From positions 11,457 through 75,456 of the forward strand of contig JACOXP010000007.1 in NCBI GenBank assembly GCA_016182295.1: DNA of 64,000 nucleotides, in the 5' to 3' direction. The position numbers and the translations under genes are program-made. The number at the start of each line of letters is the position of its first letter. The first letter of the stretch is position 1. Source of the stretch: Candidatus Harrisonbacteria bacterium (GTDB taxonomy: Bacteria > Patescibacteriota > Minisyncoccia > UBA6257 > WO2-44-18). This document shows positions 1 through 34,423 of this stretch, piece after piece. The notes under the pieces are model-generated. The model worked only from the letters and a program-made list of their open reading frames with translations, was not told the origin of the DNA and ran no database searches.

Positions 1-1117
1 CTTGAGAAATCGGCAGGGTCTTTCTGACCAATCTTTCGATATCGCGCAATTCCCGTCGCTGATCCGGCGTTACCAATGAAATGGCGTGCCCGCCGGCTCC
101 CGCGCGGGCGGTGCGGCCGATGCGGTGCACGTAATCCTCGGTGTTGCTTGGCAAATCAAAATTTAATACTAACTCAATGCCGGTAACATCGATGCCTCTT
201 GAAGCGATATCCGTCGCTATCAATACCCGATATCTTCCGAATTTAAAACCATCCAAAGCGTCTCGGCGTTGTTTTAAAGAACGGTTGGAGTGCAACTCCG
301 CGGCGGTATGTCCCATTTCGCGAACTATTCTGCTCAATTTTTTCGCTCCGAATTTTGTTCTGGTGAAAATCAAGGTCGAGCCGGAGTATTGCTGAAGCAG
401 TTTCTCCACCAAGCGAATTTTTGATTCTTTGGAAATAATAAATATTTCCTGCGTTACTTTTTCCACAGTCGTGCCGGACGGAGCCACCTCCACCCGAATC
501 GGCAGTTTCATGTGGGCAGTCGCTATTTTCATAATTTCCGGAGGCAGAGTGGCGGAAAAAAGCATTGTTTGCCGGTCGCGCGGAAGCGCTTGGAAGATTT
601 GTCGCATCTGCGGCGCGAACCCCATGTCAAACATGCGATCTGCTTCGTCCAGCACGGCAATTTTTACGTCATCTAAACGCAAGGTCTTCTGATTCAAATG
701 ATCAATGAGTCTTCCGGGCGTGGCAATAATAATTTTGGGGTCTCGAGCGAGATCTTTTTTTTGCGGCCACATCGGGGCGCCGCCGATCAACACCGCCGTG
801 CGCATCCCCAAATCCGATCCAACTTTTCGCAATGCTTCGTCTACTTGAAGCGCCAACTCGCGGGTCGGCAAGACGATTAAACCCCGATCCTTAGTATTGC
901 GGAGAATCTGAATCATCGGAATACCAAAAGCGAGCGTCTTGCCGGTACCGGTTTGAGCCACTCCAACCACGTCTTTGCCCTGAACGGCTACGGGAATAGC
1001 TTGCTGTTGAATTGGCGTCGGATTTTTATAGCCCAGTTTTTCCAGTTTGCTCAAAAGCGCCGGAGCAATACCCAGCGACATGAAACCCGGTATCGGTGGT
1101 TGAGGAGTTTTGTTCAT
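1..1117 (-). CDS. DEAD-box ATP-dependent RNA helicase; the 3-prime end of the gene runs off the window start
   Basis: Reverse-complement translation from the ATG at 1117 gives MNKTPQPPIPGFMSLGIAPALLSKLEKLGYKNPTPIQQQAIP and then the helicase motifs AQTGTGKT, VLDEADRM, SAT and HRIGRTARAG. It is absent from the ORF track because it runs off the edge. Confidence 0.85.
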   Translation of the reverse strand, partial: MNKTPQPPIPGFMSLGIAPALLSKLEKLGYKNPTPIQQQAIPVAVQGKDVVGVAQTGTGKTLAFGIPMIQILRNTKDRGLIVLPTRELALQVDEALRKVGSDLGMRTAVLIGGAPMWPQKKDLARDPKIIIATPGRLIDHLNQKTLRLDDVKIAVLDEADRMFDMGFAPQMRQIFQALPRDRQTMLFSATLPPEIMKIATAHMKLPIRVEVAPSGTTVEKVTQEIFIISKESKIRLVEKLLQQYSGSTLIFTRTKFGAKKLSRIVREMGHTAAELHSNRSLKQRRDALDGFKFGRYRVLIATDIASRGIDVTGIELVLNFDLPSNTEDYVHRIGRTARAGAGGHAISLVTPDQRRELRDIERLVRKTLPISQ

Positions 1118-1125
1118 TTTTCTAA

Positions 1126-2076
1126 TTATATCCTATTAAGGATCTTTTTTACGTTTTCCATGCTTTCCCAATCGTGAGTGGAAATAACAATAGCGTTGGG
1201 GTCTATTTTTTTCAACGCCTTGAGCTTTTCTTTTATTTCTTCCGGCGGCAATAAATCGCTTTTGCTTAAAAATAAATATTCAGGTTTTTTCGTTAATTCT
1301 TGATTGAAATTTGAAAGCTCGGTTTTAATTATTTTGTAATCTTGCTCCAGGTTTTCGGATTCCGCGGAAATTAAATGGAAAAGGATTTTTGTCCGTTCAA
1401 TGTGCCGCAAGAATTTTATTCCCAATCCCTTGCCGGCTGACGCTCCTTCAATAAGTCCGGGAATGTCCGCCAAAATCAATTTGTAATAAGCGCCCAAATT
1501 CGGCTCCAGAGTGGTGAAGGGATAGTTCGCTACTCTGCTTTTAGCTTTGGTCAATTCGTTTAGTAAACTGGACTTCCCGGCATTGGGCAGACCGATAATT
1601 CCGACATCCGCGATTAATTTGAGCTCTAATCGAATAGTGAAGCTTTCCCCTTCCTTGCCGTATTGAAATTCCGTGGGGCTGGTTCGATGCGGCGCTCGGA
1701 ATTTGAAATTGCCTTTACCGCCATGTCCGCCTTGAGCCGCTAAAACTCTTTCCCCGCTTTTTACGATTTCCAGAACTTCTCCGGCTTCAATTTTATGAAT
1801 TACCGTGCCAACCGGAACTTTTAAAATTAAATCCGCGCCGTCTTTGCCATCGCGGTATTGGCTTCGGCCGTCCGATCCATCTTTGGCAATGGCTTCTTTT
1901 TTATTTCTAAACTGAATTAGCGCGATTAAGTCAGGAACGCCTTCAAAATAAATACTGCCGCCATTGCCGCCGTCGGCGCCAGTCGGCCCAAGAGCCAATT
2001 TATTCTTTTCAAAAGCCACCGCGCCTTTCCCGCCGTTTCCGGCGCGGACTTTGATAGTTACATCGTCGATTAACAT
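1126..2076 (-). CDS. obg: Obg family GTPase
   Basis: MLIDDVTIKVRAGNGGKGAVAFEKNK is the Obg N-terminal glycine-rich fold. It is followed by a G domain (GLPNAGKSSLLN, DIPGLIEGA). Confidence 0.85.
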   Translation of the reverse strand: MLIDDVTIKVRAGNGGKGAVAFEKNKLALGPTGADGGNGGSIYFEGVPDLIALIQFRNKKEAIAKDGSDGRSQYRDGKDGADLILKVPVGTVIHKIEAGEVLEIVKSGERVLAAQGGHGGKGNFKFRAPHRTSPTEFQYGKEGESFTIRLELKLIADVGIIGLPNAGKSSLLNELTKAKSRVANYPFTTLEPNLGAYYKLILADIPGLIEGASAGKGLGIKFLRHIERTKILFHLISAESENLEQDYKIIKTELSNFNQELTKKPEYLFLSKSDLLPPEEIKEKLKALKKIDPNAIVISTHDWESMENVKKILNRI

Positions 2077-2195
2077 GTCGGTGCGCAGTATAAGCTAAAA
2101 TGAAGCTAACTACAAGGCGGGCAGTGTCGGTCTGGGGATAACTATTGACTTTCAATAACTACTTGTTAGTATACTATTATCACCACGAAAAAGAC

Positions 2196-2230
2196 CCTTG
2201 CGCAGATACGTCTGCGCCGGGGGCTTTTTC
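2196..2230. terminator. Bidirectional Rho-independent terminator hairpin
   Basis: gcgcaga-tacg-tctgcgc stem-loop followed by cgggggcttttt. It sits immediately after the stop of the 2229..2732 gene. Confidence 0.5.
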
Positions 2231-2732
2231 ATTTTGGGCTTCTAAACAGTAATTTATGCTTCATATCTTCGAGATAAATAATCGGCGCCCCTGTCCGTTT
2301 TAACAGAATTGAACATTTGGCGATAGGCGCGGGAGAAACGATGACACAAGGTATTTTCTTCTCCTGCCAAAAACGAACAAGAGACGCGTAGTCCCCATCG
2401 CTTGCAACGAGAAGAACGGCTTCAGGACAAGCTTCATAGTAATCCTTCATAGCTTGGAGCACTAAATCCGCATCGCAGTTTCCCTTCGCTTTCCCAGATC
2501 CATCGTAAACAATTTCTTTAAATACTAATTTATACCCCGTGGACTGCAACGAGGTATATAAATCGGCATGTTTCGACATAAGCCCGATGAATAAATATGC
2601 CTCCGTAACACTAAATTTTTGACGTATCCATGACCTAAACCTCCGGTAATCAAGTTTCCACATAGATGACTCGACGCCTTTATGTAAATTGGCGCCGTCG
2701 ATATAGGCGTAATTTTTGAATTCTTTTTGCAT
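2229..2732 (-). CDS. NYN-domain (LabA-like, PIN-like) protein
   Basis: YIDGANL...NCDADLVLQAM...LVASDGDYASLVRFWQEKKIPCVIVS is typical of NYN/DUF88. The start was chosen at the internal MQKEF, which abuts the upstream gene. Confidence 0.65.
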   Translation of the reverse strand: MQKEFKNYAYIDGANLHKGVESSMWKLDYRRFRSWIRQKFSVTEAYLFIGLMSKHADLYTSLQSTGYKLVFKEIVYDGSGKAKGNCDADLVLQAMKDYYEACPEAVLLVASDGDYASLVRFWQEKKIPCVIVSPAPIAKCSILLKRTGAPIIYLEDMKHKLLFRSPK

Positions 2733-2733
2733 T

Positions 2734-3372
2734 TTAAAGTAATTCGTCAATGAGATTTTTAATACTCCTATCCTTCAGCCACAACTTTTTAATTTTACCC
2801 CTCATTTCCTGATGTTGCGGATATCCTTTGTCTATTTCCCCACCCATTAAATCCGAAAATTCAATATTTAATAATTCTGTGAGGGATTCTTTAATATCAT
2901 TATATAAATCTTTTGCTATGCCATCTTCTAATAACTTTTTACCAAACGCATAGTAAGTATAAAAATGAAAGATCTCGTGCATGATTATGTTATTTGAAAA
3001 TTGCGACCCGATTTTTACAAAAAAGTAATTTTCTTGAGTATTGTAAGTACAGCGCTCGTTGTTCGTTAAATAAACGGTAATTGTGCCCGCAGGGTACTTA
3101 ATCCCAAAAGTTTTCTCTGCTCTTTCAATAAAGACGTTTTCAATTTTGAGCCACTTATTACGAATAGAATTTATTTCTTTTTCTACATCAATTTTATTTG
3201 TTTTGATGTGTTCCTCAATAAAATGTTTTATTTTCTCTACATCAAAATTTTCCCCGTTAATTTTAGTGTACAGATTTTGAAATTCCGTATAATTTTTTCT
3301 ATTTACGGACTTAGTTGATTTTGTGAAATTCTCCACGTCCTTTGTTAAATCGTAATAGAAAACTAGCTGCAT
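2734..3372 (-). CDS. Hypothetical protein with an HExxH motif (HEIFH); possible metal-dependent hydrolase
   Basis: 212-aa ORF transcribed together with the NYN gene. It has a single HEIFH motif and no other recognisable family signature. Confidence 0.45.
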   Translation of the reverse strand: MQLVFYYDLTKDVENFTKSTKSVNRKNYTEFQNLYTKINGENFDVEKIKHFIEEHIKTNKIDVEKEINSIRNKWLKIENVFIERAEKTFGIKYPAGTITVYLTNNERCTYNTQENYFFVKIGSQFSNNIIMHEIFHFYTYYAFGKKLLEDGIAKDLYNDIKESLTELLNIEFSDLMGGEIDKGYPQHQEMRGKIKKLWLKDRSIKNLIDELL

Positions 3373-3524
3373 ATTTCTATAGTATCTTATTATCGCAAAA
3401 CAAAAAAAGCCTGTAGACGAAGCACCTCGGTCTCTCGATAAAAAATGTTGACTGCGGTGAAATTATATCCTTTGCGCGAATCTTTTTTGAGGAACATTAT
3501 AAAACGGCGCTACTCGCTCCCTTA

Positions 3525-4706
3525 CTAAAATCTATGTTTGAATGCTCTCCTAAAACCAGCGTCTTCGGCTTCCTTGACGGTAAACGCGTAAAACTCACCT
3601 TCTTTATCGCCAACTATCGTTCGGTCGTATTGTTGATCCATAGGCAGGTGATAAATTTTGGTCTTTCGACCAGTTTCATCAACATTGATGTTGCATTTTA
3701 TTCTCGGAAACTCGCCAAGTGGTTTGTTTTCAATCACTTCTACACTCAACGCTTGTGCCATCTCTTTTGCCTTTTGTGATAAACTCGTCGAGGTAAAGAA
3801 TATTGGTCTTAAATGTTGCTCGTTGAGCAACTTTGAAAATGCCTCAAAACTTTTCTGATTGCGAGCACCACCGAAATATCTAATCCAATATTCCATTGTC
3901 GTTCCGAACAACTGGAAAACGTGTTTTTCGTGTATCTCTTTGTATTGTGCCCAGTGCTTACATTGGACAATACAGACATCGCCTCCCTTTGTTGCGATAA
4001 TGTCTCGACCGAGGTCTTCGAATCCGTCAATAATGCCTTTGTAGTGGATGTTGTACCCTTTTTGCGAGAATAGGTATCCGACATACATTTCATAATCTCT
4101 CCCGATAGCCCATTTTGATTTATTACGGTTTTTCAAATATCTATCTAACGCTCTTTGATTGCGCTCAACAGAAGGCAGACTTCTGTATTCTTCTGGGGTT
4201 AGATAATCTTTTACCCTGTCTTCATTTTCACCTTCTTCCGCTTCTCCGTCTACGCGAACAGGAATTTCCTCGTTTTCGTTTTCTGCAATTAGTTCAGAAA
4301 TCCACGGGAAAAGTTTCTCTAAGTAATGGAGTTTATAAAGGATAACTTTATTTTGTTTTAATAATTCTCGTTTTTCTTTCTTGATTTCTCGAACGGCTTC
4401 TGCGGCTGTATAGGCGGGGTGTCTTTTGTGTGTTAAATAATCTGCAAGTTTTCCGTCTCGCAATGCAAAATAATCCGCATACGCCTCAGCAAGCCACGGA
4501 AAGCCCATTGAACGCTGGCGCGTGATTTTTTCAATATGTTCGTGGGTAGCTTTCTTTTCTTTGGCAAATTTTTCTTTTTCGATATTGAGCGCATCAAGTT
4601 CGGGTTTCAACTTTCGATATAACTTGGCATCGGCAAAAGCATCTCGTATCCATGAGATAATCCCAAAGAGGATAAACAAACCTACGATTGCGAGTATCAA
4701 TTCCAT
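3525..4706 (-). CDS. Membrane-anchored protein with a coiled coil and a C-terminal Mrr-like restriction-endonuclease-fold (PD-(D/E)xK) domain
   Basis: N-terminal TM helix (ILAIVGLFILFGIISWI), then a K/E-rich coiled coil. The C-terminal half carries GRDYEMYVGYLF...DIIATKGGDVCIVQCKHW, which resembles the Mrr catalytic core. Confidence 0.5.
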   Translation of the reverse strand: MELILAIVGLFILFGIISWIRDAFADAKLYRKLKPELDALNIEKEKFAKEKKATHEHIEKITRQRSMGFPWLAEAYADYFALRDGKLADYLTHKRHPAYTAAEAVREIKKEKRELLKQNKVILYKLHYLEKLFPWISELIAENENEEIPVRVDGEAEEGENEDRVKDYLTPEEYRSLPSVERNQRALDRYLKNRNKSKWAIGRDYEMYVGYLFSQKGYNIHYKGIIDGFEDLGRDIIATKGGDVCIVQCKHWAQYKEIHEKHVFQLFGTTMEYWIRYFGGARNQKSFEAFSKLLNEQHLRPIFFTSTSLSQKAKEMAQALSVEVIENKPLGEFPRIKCNINVDETGRKTKIYHLPMDQQYDRTIVGDKEGEFYAFTVKEAEDAGFRRAFKHRF

Positions 4707-13729: not shown

Positions 13730-14398
13730 ATGCCAATACATCGAACAAAAAATGAAAATTTCTTTAAGAAGTGGTCGCCGAAAATGGCATACGTGTTGGG
13801 TTATACATGCGCGGATGGAGCTTTAACTGTTGGTAAGCGGGGAAACAAGTTTTTGGATTTCACTTCTGTGGACGAAAGTCTTATACAAACCGTTCGCGCG
13901 ACACTCGACTCTAATCATAAAATAAACCGTAAAACCAGAAAGGAAAATTGGCGCCCGGCTTACAGATTACAAATCGGCAGCAAGACTATGTTTGACGATT
14001 TGGGAAAATTGGGATTGACAACCAAAAAAGCAAAACGCTTAGTTTATCCGGATGTTCCCAAAAAGTACTTCGCGGACTTTGTTAGAGGATATTTCGACGG
14101 CGATGGACACGTTAGCCACGGCGCGTATAAAAGGAAGGGTGGAAATGGGGTAAAACAAGTTCTGCTTTCGGGTTTGACGTCGAGCACCAAAAGTTTTTTA
14201 GAAAAACTTAGAAATGATTTAACAAAATTGGGTATTGTGAGTGGTGGTACTCTGTATTACAAAAAGGGGCACCGACTTACATTCTCAATTAACGATAGTT
14301 TTGGTCTATACGAATTCCTTTACAAAAACGCGGGGTATGGCTTATACTTACAAAGGAAAAAGAGAGTTTTCGAGAAATTTTTTAGAATGCGGGCGTAG
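13730..14398 (+). CDS. LAGLIDADG homing endonuclease with two motifs, free-standing
   Basis: Two dodecapeptide motifs: YVLGYTCADGAL and FVRGYFDGDGHV. The stop codon lies inside the first 10 nt of the downstream tRNA-Asp. Confidence 0.8.
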   Translation: MPIHRTKNENFFKKWSPKMAYVLGYTCADGALTVGKRGNKFLDFTSVDESLIQTVRATLDSNHKINRKTRKENWRPAYRLQIGSKTMFDDLGKLGLTTKKAKRLVYPDVPKKYFADFVRGYFDGDGHVSHGAYKRKGGNGVKQVLLSGLTSSTKSFLEKLRNDLTKLGIVSGGTLYYKKGHRLTFSINDSFGLYEFLYKNAGYGLYLQRKKRVFEKFFRMRA

Positions 14399-14463
14399 CG
14401 TAGCCTGGTTATCGCGCCTCCTTGTCACGGAGGAGATCGCCGGTTCAAATCCGGTCGCCCGCG
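14389..14463 (+). tRNA. tRNA-Asp (anticodon GTC)
   Basis: GCGGGCG acceptor stem pairs with CGCCCGC. Anticodon loop TTGTCAC. T-arm GCCGGTTCAAATCCGGT. Discriminator G. No CCA encoded. Confidence 0.8.
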
Positions 14464-14467
14464 CAAG

Positions 14468-26517: not shown

Positions 26518-26535
26518 TCGGGGTTTTTATTTTTG
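26502..26535. terminator. Rho-independent terminator
   Basis: ccccgac-gcaaactagt-cggggttttt. Confidence 0.55.
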
Positions 26536-26551
26536 CGGAGGGTGTAGGAGT
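26525..26551. repeat. Direct repeat copy of the tRNA-Ser(TGA) 3-prime end (27 nt)
   Basis: ttttatttttgcggagggtgtaggagt is identical to 26746..26772. Confidence 0.8.
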
Positions 26552-26640
26552 TTCGCTTCGCTCCGTGGCTGCCGCCCGGAGCTCGCCGAACCATAACGCC
26601 GCACCCCGACCCCCACACTGGACACCTTTGGGTTTCCAGC

Positions 26641-26674
26641 GCCCAAGTGGTCTGACGCGTCAGACCACTTGGGC
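26641..26674. repeat. Perfect 34-nt palindrome
   Basis: gcccaagtggtctgacg|cgtcagaccacttgggc lies in the GC-rich insert. Confidence 0.8.
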
Positions 26675-26716
26675 TGCCTTCCAACACGGGGTGCAGCTCG
26701 GTCCGACTCCCCACCA

Positions 26717-26755
26717 GAAAAATAAAACATGCCACTTGCGGCATGTTTTATTTTT
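26717..26755. terminator. Bidirectional terminator-like hairpin abutting the tRNA 3-prime end
   Basis: aaaaataaaacatgcc-acttgc-ggcatgttttattttt. Confidence 0.5.
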
Positions 26756-26756
26756 G

Positions 26757-26838
26757 CGGAGGGTGTAGGAGTCGAACCTACTAGGGCTTGCGCCCATCCG
26801 CTTTCAAGGCGGACGCATTACCGTTCTGCCAACCCTCC
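26757..26838 (-). tRNA. tRNA-Ser (anticodon TGA)
   Basis: Reverse complement is GGAGGGT...anticodon loop CTTGAAA...long variable arm...GGTTCGACTCCTACACCCTCCG. Confidence 0.85.
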
Positions 26839-29037: not shown

Positions 29038-29081
29038 TCCTTCCTCCTTTTGAGAGCTCGTAAGTTTTTCAAAGAACCCTG

Positions 29082-29152
29082 TGGACCTAGCCAGAATCGA
29101 ACTGGCGCTTCCTCATTGCAAATGAGGTGTTCTACCACTGAACTATAGGCCC
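29082..29152 (-). tRNA. tRNA-Ala (anticodon TGC)
   Basis: Reverse complement is GGGCCTATAGTTCAGTGGTAGAAC...TTTGCAA loop...TTCGATTC...TAGGTCCA, with a G3:U70 pair. Confidence 0.8.
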
Positions 29153-29157
29153 TTGGC

Positions 29158-29174
29158 GGAGACGGGAGGATTCG
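29158..29174. repeat. Direct repeat of the tRNA-Ser(CGA) 3-prime end (ggagacgggaggattcg), about 150 nt downstream of the tRNA
   Basis: Identical 17-mer at 29307..29323. The copy continues as ...cgcc with a tRNA-like CCA end on the minus strand. Confidence 0.75.
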
Positions 29175-29305
29175 CCTACAAGTCGCTCGGCCTTCCGGCC
29201 TCGCGCTAGCAGGCCGCCCCTCGCGGCCGTGCTCGTCACCTCGCTCGCACGGCATCGCTGCGGTCTTCGAATCCTCAAACAAGCCAAGCAGTTGGCTTGT
29301 TTTTG

Positions 29306-29392
29306 CGGAGACGGGAGGATTCGAACCTCCGAAGCCCTTTCGGACTTACCGCATTTCGAGTGCGGCGCATTCGTCCACTCTGCCACGTCTCC
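29306..29392 (-). tRNA. tRNA-Ser (anticodon CGA)
   Basis: Reverse complement is GGAGACGTGGCAGAGTGGACGAATGCGCCGCACTCGAAATGCGG, followed by a long variable arm, then GGAGGTTCGAATCCTCCCGTCTCCG. Confidence 0.85.
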
Positions 29393-33900: not shown

Positions 33901-34423
33901 ATTTCCTCCTTTCTTGAAAACGGTGGTCGGGCGGGAATGTAACAAACAATGATTATGAAATGCTCCCTCCGTGTTCTAGTTAAGTAACGACGTTCTCGGT
34001 GGCGGTACAGCTGTATCGCCAAATGGTGTGTTAAATCTGAGTCTCAAGCTCAGCGAAAGTGCTGATTCGTTTATACAACGAAGCCATGAAGTTTGTCAAG
34101 AGCCTGTCTGCTAGATTCAACTCTGAAGTGCAACACTCACTACTTCTAACGGGGAGAGATTTCAGGGGTTCACCCGCCGCGGCGTGCGGCTAGCGAACCC
34201 GACTGCCATTCGGCAGCTTGCCGACACCCTCGCCTCGGTCTGCGAACTGATCGAGGGGCAGGCTGGGATCGAGTCGGCGTAAGACAAGTCACCCATCACT
34301 TCGGTATCTCACTTCACCCATGGGAGGGACACCCTGCCTGCCTGGAGAGTGTCCCTCTCCACTTCCGTGGACGGACTAACCACAGATTTACGCTTTCCTT
34401 CTTCATGTGATACATTAATCACA

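Follow-up and report, generated by a model that had tools for sequence, protein, structure and literature searches.

A 64,000-nt stretch of Candidatus Harrisonbacteria (candidate phyla radiation, CPR/Parcubacteria; assembly GCA_016182295.1, contig JACOXP010000007.1, positions 11,457-75,456, forward strand), which we call the window, contains an intact tRNA-Ser(CGA) gene whose 3' end recurs 149 nt away, directly before tRNA-Ala(TGC). Between the two copies lies a short, GC-rich element. Here we describe this element and the family to which it belongs. tRNA genes were called with ARAGORN and the Rfam tRNA model; R1 denotes the covariance model of the family described below. The features of the locus, in the order of the tRNA strand, are as follows.

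29305..29392, (-): tRNA-Ser(CGA), intact and presumably functional, its own 3' end being the proximal repeat (ARAGORN; Rfam tRNA, 59 bits)
29305..29323, (-): proximal repeat, C56 of the T-loop to C74, CGAATCCTCCCGTCTCCGC (repeat search, shuffles)
29279..29300, (-): hairpin H0 (ACAAGCCAA-CTGC-TTGGCTTGT), an optional module conserved in the family, between an A-run and a T-run (fold)
29266..29276, (-): antisense arm GAGGAT-TCGAA (fold, R1 alignment)
29175..29265, (-): GC-rich core with helices P2, P3 and P4, CGCGAGG and a P5/P6 arm ending GTAGG (R1 alignment, covariation)
29154..29174, (-): distal (displaced) copy, C56-G73, with CCA at 29156-29154 and an extra A at 29153 before tRNA-Ala (sequence; equivalent of the empty site at locus L010)
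29154..29277, (-): whole R1 match (76.6 bits, E 2.7e-17)
29081..29152, (-): tRNA-Ala(TGC), directly downstream (ARAGORN, Rfam)

The tRNA-Ser(CGA) 3' end is duplicated

The initial annotation had proposed that the 3' end of tRNA-Ser(CGA) is duplicated around a GC-rich, hairpin-rich insert, and both parts of this description hold. The window has exactly two copies of the 17-mer GGAGACGGGAGGATTCG (29158-29174 and 29307-29323), where dinucleotide-preserving shuffles, our baseline for chance, expect 0.00 matches. With one mismatch the full repeat is 22 nt long (29153-29174 and 29302-29323, spacing 149), and read on the minus (tRNA) strand it corresponds to the 19 nt from C56 in the T-loop to C74 of tRNA-Ser(CGA). 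The distal copy continues G-CCA-A and then meets G1 of tRNA-Ala(TGC) at 29152. The 149-nt insert contains no open reading frame (ORF). The DNA between the copies has a GC content of 66-72%, against 44.7% window-wide, and the insert folds better than all 200 of its shuffles (z = -3.55). Apart from tRNA-Ser(CGA) and tRNA-Ser(TGA), no tRNA of the window has such a 3'-end duplication.

The distal copy had been read as a pseudo-3' end with a CCA next to tRNA-Ala, in a genome whose authentic tRNA genes do not encode CCA. The pseudo-3' end is present, but the premise is incorrect: tRNA-Ser(GCT) and tRNA-Pro of the window both encode CCA. Because they do, the CCA of the displaced copy is most simply explained as the end that tRNA-Ser(CGA) encoded ancestrally, moved by the insertion and not a novelty made by the element. 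We also considered TGGCGGAGACGGGAGGATTCG (plus strand) as a primer-binding site and dropped this reading, as the second instance has no TGG and the CCA is best taken as the ancestral end. Eight of the nine window tRNA genes without an encoded CCA have CA directly after the discriminator (N73-CA...), and most proximal copies in the family are likewise N73-CA, which may be a lineage-specific 3'-processing signal.

The hairpin between tRNA-Ser(CGA) and the arm, H0, had been called terminator-like. A hairpin is there, yet it is a conserved module of the family, its 18-mer AAGCCAACTGCTTGGCTT being identical in six other loci: L140 (three times), L153, L170, L177, L200 and L244. No promoter-like site was found between tRNA-Ser(CGA) and tRNA-Ala(TGC), and tRNA-Ala needs a transcript, which suggests that the window copy would be transcribed inside a shared tRNA-Ser/element/tRNA-Ala precursor.

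A second, divergent instance at tRNA-Ser(TGA)

A first instance of the same arrangement had been noted at tRNA-Ser(TGA). An exact 27-nt repeat is indeed present there (26525-26551 and 26746-26772, spacing 221), and the insert folds with z = -9.09.

26756..26838, (-): tRNA-Ser(TGA), host of the second instance (ARAGORN, Rfam)
26746..26772, (-): proximal repeat, A58 to 10 nt beyond the discriminator (repeat search)
26718..26755, (-): A-tract, hairpin and T-tract, terminator-like, after the tRNA (fold)
26700..26715, (-): antisense arm GGTGGGGAGTCGGACC (fold; sequence reading)
26552..26699, (-): larger, different GC-rich core with a perfect 17-bp hairpin (fold)
26525..26551, (-): distal repeat, adjoining the terminator of a convergent gene (repeat search)

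The arm GGTGGGGAGTCGGACC is close to the T-arm's reverse complement (GGAGTCGAACC, one mismatch), and in the fold it pairs with ACTCCTACACC of the distal copy. The core ends GGAGCGAAGCGAA, which resembles the family 3' junction ...CGAAGC, and the 3' end reads ...CGAAGCGAA. Comparison of the two window inserts, as the initial annotation had advised, gave a divided answer: they share a common architecture but no alignable sequence, and the insert at 26.5 kb is detected neither by R1 nor by BLAST against 250 loci. We provisionally group it, by architecture only, with the other core types mentioned below. This insert also contains a perfect 34-nt palindrome (26641-26674; 17-bp arms, no loop), which is unusually perfect for an RNA hairpin.

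The element behind tRNA-Ser(CGA) belongs to a family found in CPR

Relatives were collected in two ways: species-representative genomes were scanned with the tRNA-Ser(CGA) 18-mer (at least 119 loci), and metagenome contigs were scanned with a target-independent core motif (at least 120 loci). Among the former, seven CPR loci carry a second copy of the tRNA-Ser 18-mer 128-177 nt downstream. Their inserts share, in order, a hairpin, GAGGAT-GAGAA, GCCG(G/C)AGCGATG, a hairpin, CGCGAGGC, a second hairpin and the tRNA copy. About 70 of the core-motif loci have a tRNA gene on the same strand 19-190 nt upstream, and these tRNAs include Ser, Leu, Arg, Val, Gln, Tyr, Asp, Lys, Asn, Met and Thr. In most of these, 14-29 nt of the locus's own upstream tRNA, beginning at CGAxTCC, recur about 40 nt past the core.

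The covariance model R1 was seeded with 43 sequences, the window copy among them (match 29154-29277 as given above), and finds 111 copies in 100 sources at a threshold of E<=1e-8. They include one behind tRNA-Ala, and the R1 hosts comprise at least 12 tRNA isotypes. All 10 R1 matches in taxonomically labelled genomes are in CPR (Saccharibacteria, Magasanikbacteria and other Patescibacteria), and there is no R1 match in Actinomycetota or other non-CPR loci carrying the identical tRNA-Ser 18-mer. Other core types with the same junction logic occur at L047 and behind tRNA-Phe and tRNA-Gly of L140. The suggestion that a recurrent element or mechanism is at work is thus borne out, the window insert being one member of a conserved structured family behind many tRNAs. 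We conclude that this is an apparently undescribed family of ~110-200-nt protein-less structured elements behind many tRNA genes in CPR (Patescibacteria). Our literature search found no description of such elements, and Rfam 15, searched with the window and canonical members at the gathering threshold and at E<=10, returned tRNA and rRNA matches only. The feature fits no known class that could be assigned. Resemblances to hammerhead, k-turn, signal recognition particle (SRP) and RNase P RNAs seen by eye were rejected as unsupported by Rfam.

These results bear on two explanations that would not involve a conserved element. The first is chance, or a replication slippage or duplication event with GC-rich filler of no conserved identity. 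Short duplications do occur, and nothing more speaks for this account; with 0 matches expected and a family conserved across phylum-level CPR lineages, it is hardly credible. The second is an attL/attR scar of a tRNA-integrating prophage, plasmid or integrative and conjugative element that has mostly been deleted (as in cis-mobilizable elements, CIMEs), the proximal tRNA end being derived from attP. A direct repeat that begins in the T-loop and extends as far as the tRNA 3' end or beyond it is the classic signature of an integrase site, and direct repeats at tRNA 3' ends reportedly serve as such sites. Some repeats in the family run through a terminator (L149), and a real island exists at the same tRNA in CPR (L032). 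The same ~100-nt covarying core nevertheless stands behind at least 12 tRNA isotypes, which counts against a scar because random deletion remnants would not share a core. In addition, a Pfam scan of the window ORFs of >=130 aa gave no integrase, transposase or reverse transcriptase match. The family has no copy in IMG/VR, INPHARED or PLSDB: two core patterns scanned against IMG/VR gave chance matches in GC-rich coding DNA only, and BLAST against INPHARED and PLSDB gave no match beyond the tRNA itself. On this and the evidence below we consider a scar improbable. tRNA gene fragments have been reviewed as products of the integration of mobile genetic elements, which are kilobases in size (PMC9897764).

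The island at L032 (5736-7181, Andersenbacteria) is a 1.36-kb insert behind tRNA-Ser(CGA) with a 58-nt repeat from the anticodon loop and one ~320-aa ORF, with no integrase; it appears to be a different, classical-looking tRNA island remnant. We considered it as an autonomous version of the family and rejected it as an island of the anticodon-loop type. Larger repeats among the tRNA-Ser 18-mer loci are those of L032, L074, L078 and L115. No related autonomous element encoding a transposase was found in the 250 loci, IMG/VR, INPHARED or PLSDB, with patterns that would miss copies carrying large insertions.

Anatomy, covariation and host-matched arms

Read on the tRNA strand, a copy begins with the complete tRNA, its N73 and C(C)A, sometimes followed by a genuine terminator or a purine-rich leader. 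Next come ~7 nt antisense to the acceptor 3' strand (A5', in many members) and the optional H0, and then 7 nt antisense to tRNA positions 59-65 (the P1 strand) followed by GAGAA, whose place is taken by TCGAA in the window copy. The rest consists of P2, P3 with an AU bulge, the hairpin P4, CGYGAGG, the P5/P6 arm, and finally C56-G57-A58 with the remaining tRNA 3' end. Members exist with and without the leader, A5' and H0. In the window core, P2 is CC/GG and P3 is GCG/CGC with the AU bulge; the arm is predicted to pair with CGAATCCTC of the distal copy as helix P1, which closes a three-way junction.

This structure is conserved and covarying. Over 106 distinct sequences and 29 base pairs, with slid pairing partners as the control, 90.2% of cells are canonical pairs, versus 31-50% in the controls; covariation scores 0.585, with a control maximum of 0.11, and 741 cells are compensatory (doubly changed). 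A hand alignment gave 88.7% paired and a covariation of 0.55. Paired cells contain 107 G-U against 67 A-C combinations, one pair having 25 G-U, and because G-U outnumbers A-C the tRNA-sense strand is modestly favoured as the strand that folds.

The arms match their hosts. The P1 strand forms a mean of 5.94/7 pairs with its own tRNA versus 4.71/7 with the tRNAs of other members, and pairing extends to loop positions 59-60 (GT answered by AC in 19 cases, AT by AT in 16 and CT by AG in 4). At informative sites, where the host T-stem has a G-U, the arm is the complement of the T-stem 3' strand in 10 and of the 5' strand in 2. In members lacking H0 the arm is a contiguous tRNA antisense (18/18 in L137, 12/12 in L133 and L114); the window arm is the reverse complement of tRNA positions 54-64 (11/12 for 54-65). 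Therefore, the element consists of an antisense tRNA 3' half, the core and a sense tRNA 3' part. The antisense arm as a whole spans tRNA positions about 72 to 54 and is split by H0 in some members.

The edges of the repeat were compared in 52 distinct members. The left edge lies at C56 in 33/52 and at G57 in 7/52, passing C56 in only 1/52. The right edge is most often at position 74 (14 members) or 75 (7 members). In some members the repeat takes in a terminator or the next tandem unit as well, and its right edge then lies up to 72 nt beyond the start of the T-stem 3' strand; overall, repeat lengths range from 19 nt to over 70 nt. Distal copies are followed by CCA in 18/52 members, the window included, and proximal copies in 8. 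P1, together with A5' in many members, is predicted to pair with the displaced positions 59-72 to form an acceptor/T-like helix with an NCCA end. At L133 (60-130), the sequence before the element contains a T-arm and an acceptor 3' strand without a tRNA call, and its acceptor strand reads CCCCACA versus CCCCGCA in the distal copy; here the proximal rather than the distal copy may be decaying.

The antisense arms count further against an att scar, as does the site beside the distal copy, which would be expected to hold the left core half-site of attR and is not T-stem-like. The arms also bear on the idea of a stand-alone guide RNA, similar to an omega-RNA, a bridge RNA or the homing CRISPR RNA (crRNA) of a CRISPR-associated transposon (CAST), with the 19 nt as the guide and the GC-rich part as the scaffold. 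A scaffold with a target-matching end of ~19 nt is what such an RNA would have, and the target differs from copy to copy; Type V-K CASTs home to tRNA genes with tRNA-matching spacers. However, the supposed guide is sequestered in cis by its complementary arm, and it would have two targets within its own locus. Genes for effectors (TnpB, IscB, Cas12k or IS110 recombinase) were found neither in the window nor consistently nearby, and Rfam gave no match to IS605-orfB or related scaffolds. We regard a guide RNA as very improbable. A plus-strand version (5' guide, scaffold, terminator) was dropped, as both the G-U pairs and the setting within an operon speak for the tRNA strand.

A stronger alternative is a host RNA gene family: a tRNA-tethered, tRNA-like small RNA passed on vertically, its copies kept alike by gene conversion. 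It could, for instance, act as a "punctuation" module for RNase P/RNase Z, setting the 3' end of the upstream tRNA, or regulate by means of its antisense arm. The structure and its unpaired nucleotides (GAGAA, GGA, the AU bulge and CGYGAGG) are strongly conserved, with covariation, as expected of such a gene. Copies lie inside tRNA operons, the acceptor/T-like helix is often CCA-ended, and the arms remain matched to the partner tRNA. The distribution of the copies, to which we now turn, tells against it.

Signs of spread among tRNA genes

A presence/absence comparison had been put forward as a check, and an empty site exists in another CPR genome, which answers the refuting condition set with the proposal. 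At L010 (Saccharibacteria), tRNA-Ser(CGA), CCA and tRNA-Ala(TGC) abut, which is the window arrangement minus 149 nt. Synteny around thyX is not conserved, and the contigs of ThyX homologues have no shared tRNA neighbourhood, so that no filled/empty comparison was available in close relatives. Presence is patchy within CPR, the element being found at roughly 12-16 of the ~70 CPR loci with the same tRNA-Ser 18-mer.

Several loci hold more than one copy. Three elements lie within 2.2 kb at L042. Two of them, behind tRNA-Ser(CGA) and tRNA-Ser(TGA), have interiors (about 125 nt) that are 100% identical and end with C56-C74 of their respective tRNAs; the arm they have in common, TAGAGAT, fits only the TGA tRNA. 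Elsewhere, the cores at tRNA-Leu and tRNA-Lys share 95% identity and those at Gln and Leu 92%, and every one of them has an arm fitted to its own host. In one tRNA operon of L140, elements stand behind Leu (two in tandem), Val, Phe and Gly, so that four neighbouring tRNAs are occupied. L150 (8266-8407, minus strand) is a degenerate solo member with no tRNA upstream. At L160, two tandem elements (25-264) lie just upstream of a 23S rRNA gene (756-4062), which itself contains a group I intron-like match (33.6 bits).

Gene conversion between copies would account for L042 and for the 95%-identical cores if these were host RNA genes. In contrast, the window element occupies a site at which only CCA(A) parted tRNA-Ser from tRNA-Ala in L010, and there would be no processing gain because RNase P cleavage at tRNA-Ala already set the Ser 3' end. 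The patchy presence, the tandem arrays, the degenerate solo copies and the several unrelated core types with the same junction logic likewise do not suit a vertically inherited gene, nor does the terminator that separates tRNA and element in some members. Moreover, no protein requires the helix to copy its neighbour's sequence. A host RNA gene family is therefore rather unlikely, though a serious alternative, since gene conversion could imitate mobility. L042 also argues against an att scar, in that both repeat copies are of the target type although the interior is identical to that of the copy at the other tRNA. With the tRNA segment carried on attP, an element lineage would be bound to a single tRNA, which the 92-95% identical cores at Leu, Lys and Gln likewise contradict; gene conversion offers a possible escape.

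We favour, with a probability of roughly 0.58, the reading that the family is a selfish RNA-structured element, not autonomous, which spreads from one tRNA gene to another and leaves the 3' end of its target duplicated. A number of observations weigh against it. We found neither a donor nor a circular form of the family, nor an enzyme that it encodes or is linked to, so we infer mobility from its distribution alone. That distribution could have other causes: the identity at L042 and the similar cores could result from gene conversion between resident copies (concerted evolution), and the empty site at L010 could be a precise deletion between direct repeats. Host-matched arms (up to 18/18) are hard to obtain by copy-and-paste that carries the donor's arm, and would require rapid compensatory change or a templated step. 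Strong intrinsic terminators stand between tRNA and element in some members (L149 and the tRNA-Ser(TGA) insert of the window), making co-transcription questionable in those members. Finally, the excess of G-U over A-C is only modest (107 versus 67), and the acceptor-antisense (A5') signal is weak overall (5.72 versus 5.20 of 7).

Comparison with known systems

The element resembles tRNA-integrative elements and islands in its location at the tRNA 3' end, in the direct repeat from the T-loop to the 3' end, and in leaving an intact tRNA with a displaced pseudo-3' end downstream. Unlike them, it is 110-200 nt rather than kilobases long, has no integrase and carries a target-antisense arm. The same core occurs at at least 12 tRNAs, the repeats at L042 are of the target type, and no free or phage-borne attP form was found.

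Short interspersed (SINE-like) retroposons move by target-primed reverse transcription, and the Mauriceville retroplasmid has a tRNA-like 3' end; some reverse transcriptases start at tRNA-like, CCA-bearing 3' ends. The family is likewise short, ORF-less, multi-copy and tRNA-related, with a CCA-bearing tRNA-like 3' end, and would need an enzyme in trans. It also has a precise 3' junction (left repeat edge at C56) with a variable 5' end and duplication. It differs in that no reverse transcriptase is encoded in the window (ORFs of >=130 aa) and there is no A-rich tail or tail matching a long interspersed element (LINE). Its tRNA-like part comes from the target's 3' end and is not an ancestral tRNA head, its arms are target-matched, and its hosts are CPR bacteria.

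Palindrome-associated transposable elements (PATEs) of the IS200/IS605 type, with their omega-RNA, and miniature inverted-repeat transposable elements (MITEs) are, like the family, small, non-coding, hairpin-rich, strand-specific and present in many copies. IS200/IS605 elements make no target duplication, whereas the family does, and Rfam gave no IS605-orfB match at E<=10. MITEs have element-specific terminal inverted repeats and an autonomous insertion sequence; the arms of the family are target sequence, differing with each tRNA, and the length of its duplication is not fixed. Long, variable target duplications are made by the IS1634/IS1549 group.

With tmRNA, viral 3' tRNA-like structures and YrlA, the family would share a coaxial acceptor/T-arm-like helix with a single-stranded NCCA end within a larger structured RNA, as judged from the predicted fold. 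It has no equivalent of the D-arm or anticodon, its helix copies the neighbouring tRNA and has no fixed identity, and a three-way junction replaces the T-loop. There are many copies per genome, and no Rfam match. Non-canonical tRNA introns of Thermoproteales archaea are said to transpose. Those introns are similar in being related short insertions at T-loop positions of many tRNAs, which implies spread, but they interrupt the tRNA and need a splicing endonuclease and a bulge-helix-bulge (BHB) motif, whereas the insert described here follows an intact tRNA.

A possible route of spread

If the family is a selfish element, it would have repeatedly entered tRNA genes at the T-loop/3'-end region. 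Insertion would be harmless, as it leaves the 3' segment of the target on either side and so rebuilds the tRNA. The element would then be co-transcribed with its host tRNA, and the arm and the displaced copy would pair into a junction-capped acceptor/T-like minihelix with a tRNA 3' end, often CCA. With such an end, tRNA enzymes could process and stabilise the element RNA; in the window, RNase P cleavage at tRNA-Ala would leave a copy ending ...GCCAA-3'. New copies would arise by copy-and-paste primed at a break between positions 55 and 56 (55|56) of a tRNA gene, probably with an RNA intermediate and an enzyme acting in trans, which is speculative. Target-primed copying is favoured by three features: a precise 3' junction, a 5' junction and repeat length that vary, and the 5' shortening of many copies.

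A bolder version of this idea is possible but doubtful: a new class of mobile element whose RNA, disguised within a tRNA operon, would grip the tRNA 3' half with its antisense arm and copy itself behind new tRNA genes, regenerating the tRNA, by target-primed reverse transcription or RNA-catalysed joining at 55|56. It would be a CPR-wide "bacterial SINE" with a tRNA-like genomic tag.

Other features of the window

A GC-rich (~70%) island of another kind, at 34146-34280, lies in a gene-poor stretch (31.8-35.2 kb); its fold z-scores are -1.25 (plus strand) and -2.76 (minus strand), and Rfam gave no match to it at E<=1. At 13730-14398 (plus strand) there is a free-standing ORF for a LAGLIDADG-like homing endonuclease (PF14528, E 3e-16), whose end overlaps the start of tRNA-Asp (14389-14464). 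A protein with an Mrr-type restriction-endonuclease domain (3525-4706, minus strand) and an NYN-domain protein (2229-2750, minus strand) are neighbours in the window.

Implications

The family appears to be a new structured RNA family of more than 100 copies with clear covariation, and it would account for a class of "tRNA gene fragments" that annotation pipelines are liable to mis-annotate. If the favoured reading is true, CPR genomes, which are among the smallest and the least rich in mobile elements, hold a prolific, unrecognised class of tiny elements. These would exploit the universal T-arm, and duplication of the target's 3' end would solve the problem of inserting into an essential gene. 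As selfish RNAs that mimic tRNA they would be amenable to study and would bear on the "genomic tag" idea, and the mobilising enzyme, once found, could point to programmable targeting of tRNA genes. Were the elements host RNA genes instead, CPR would possess a tRNA-specific companion RNA for many of their tRNAs, itself a novelty in CPR biology.

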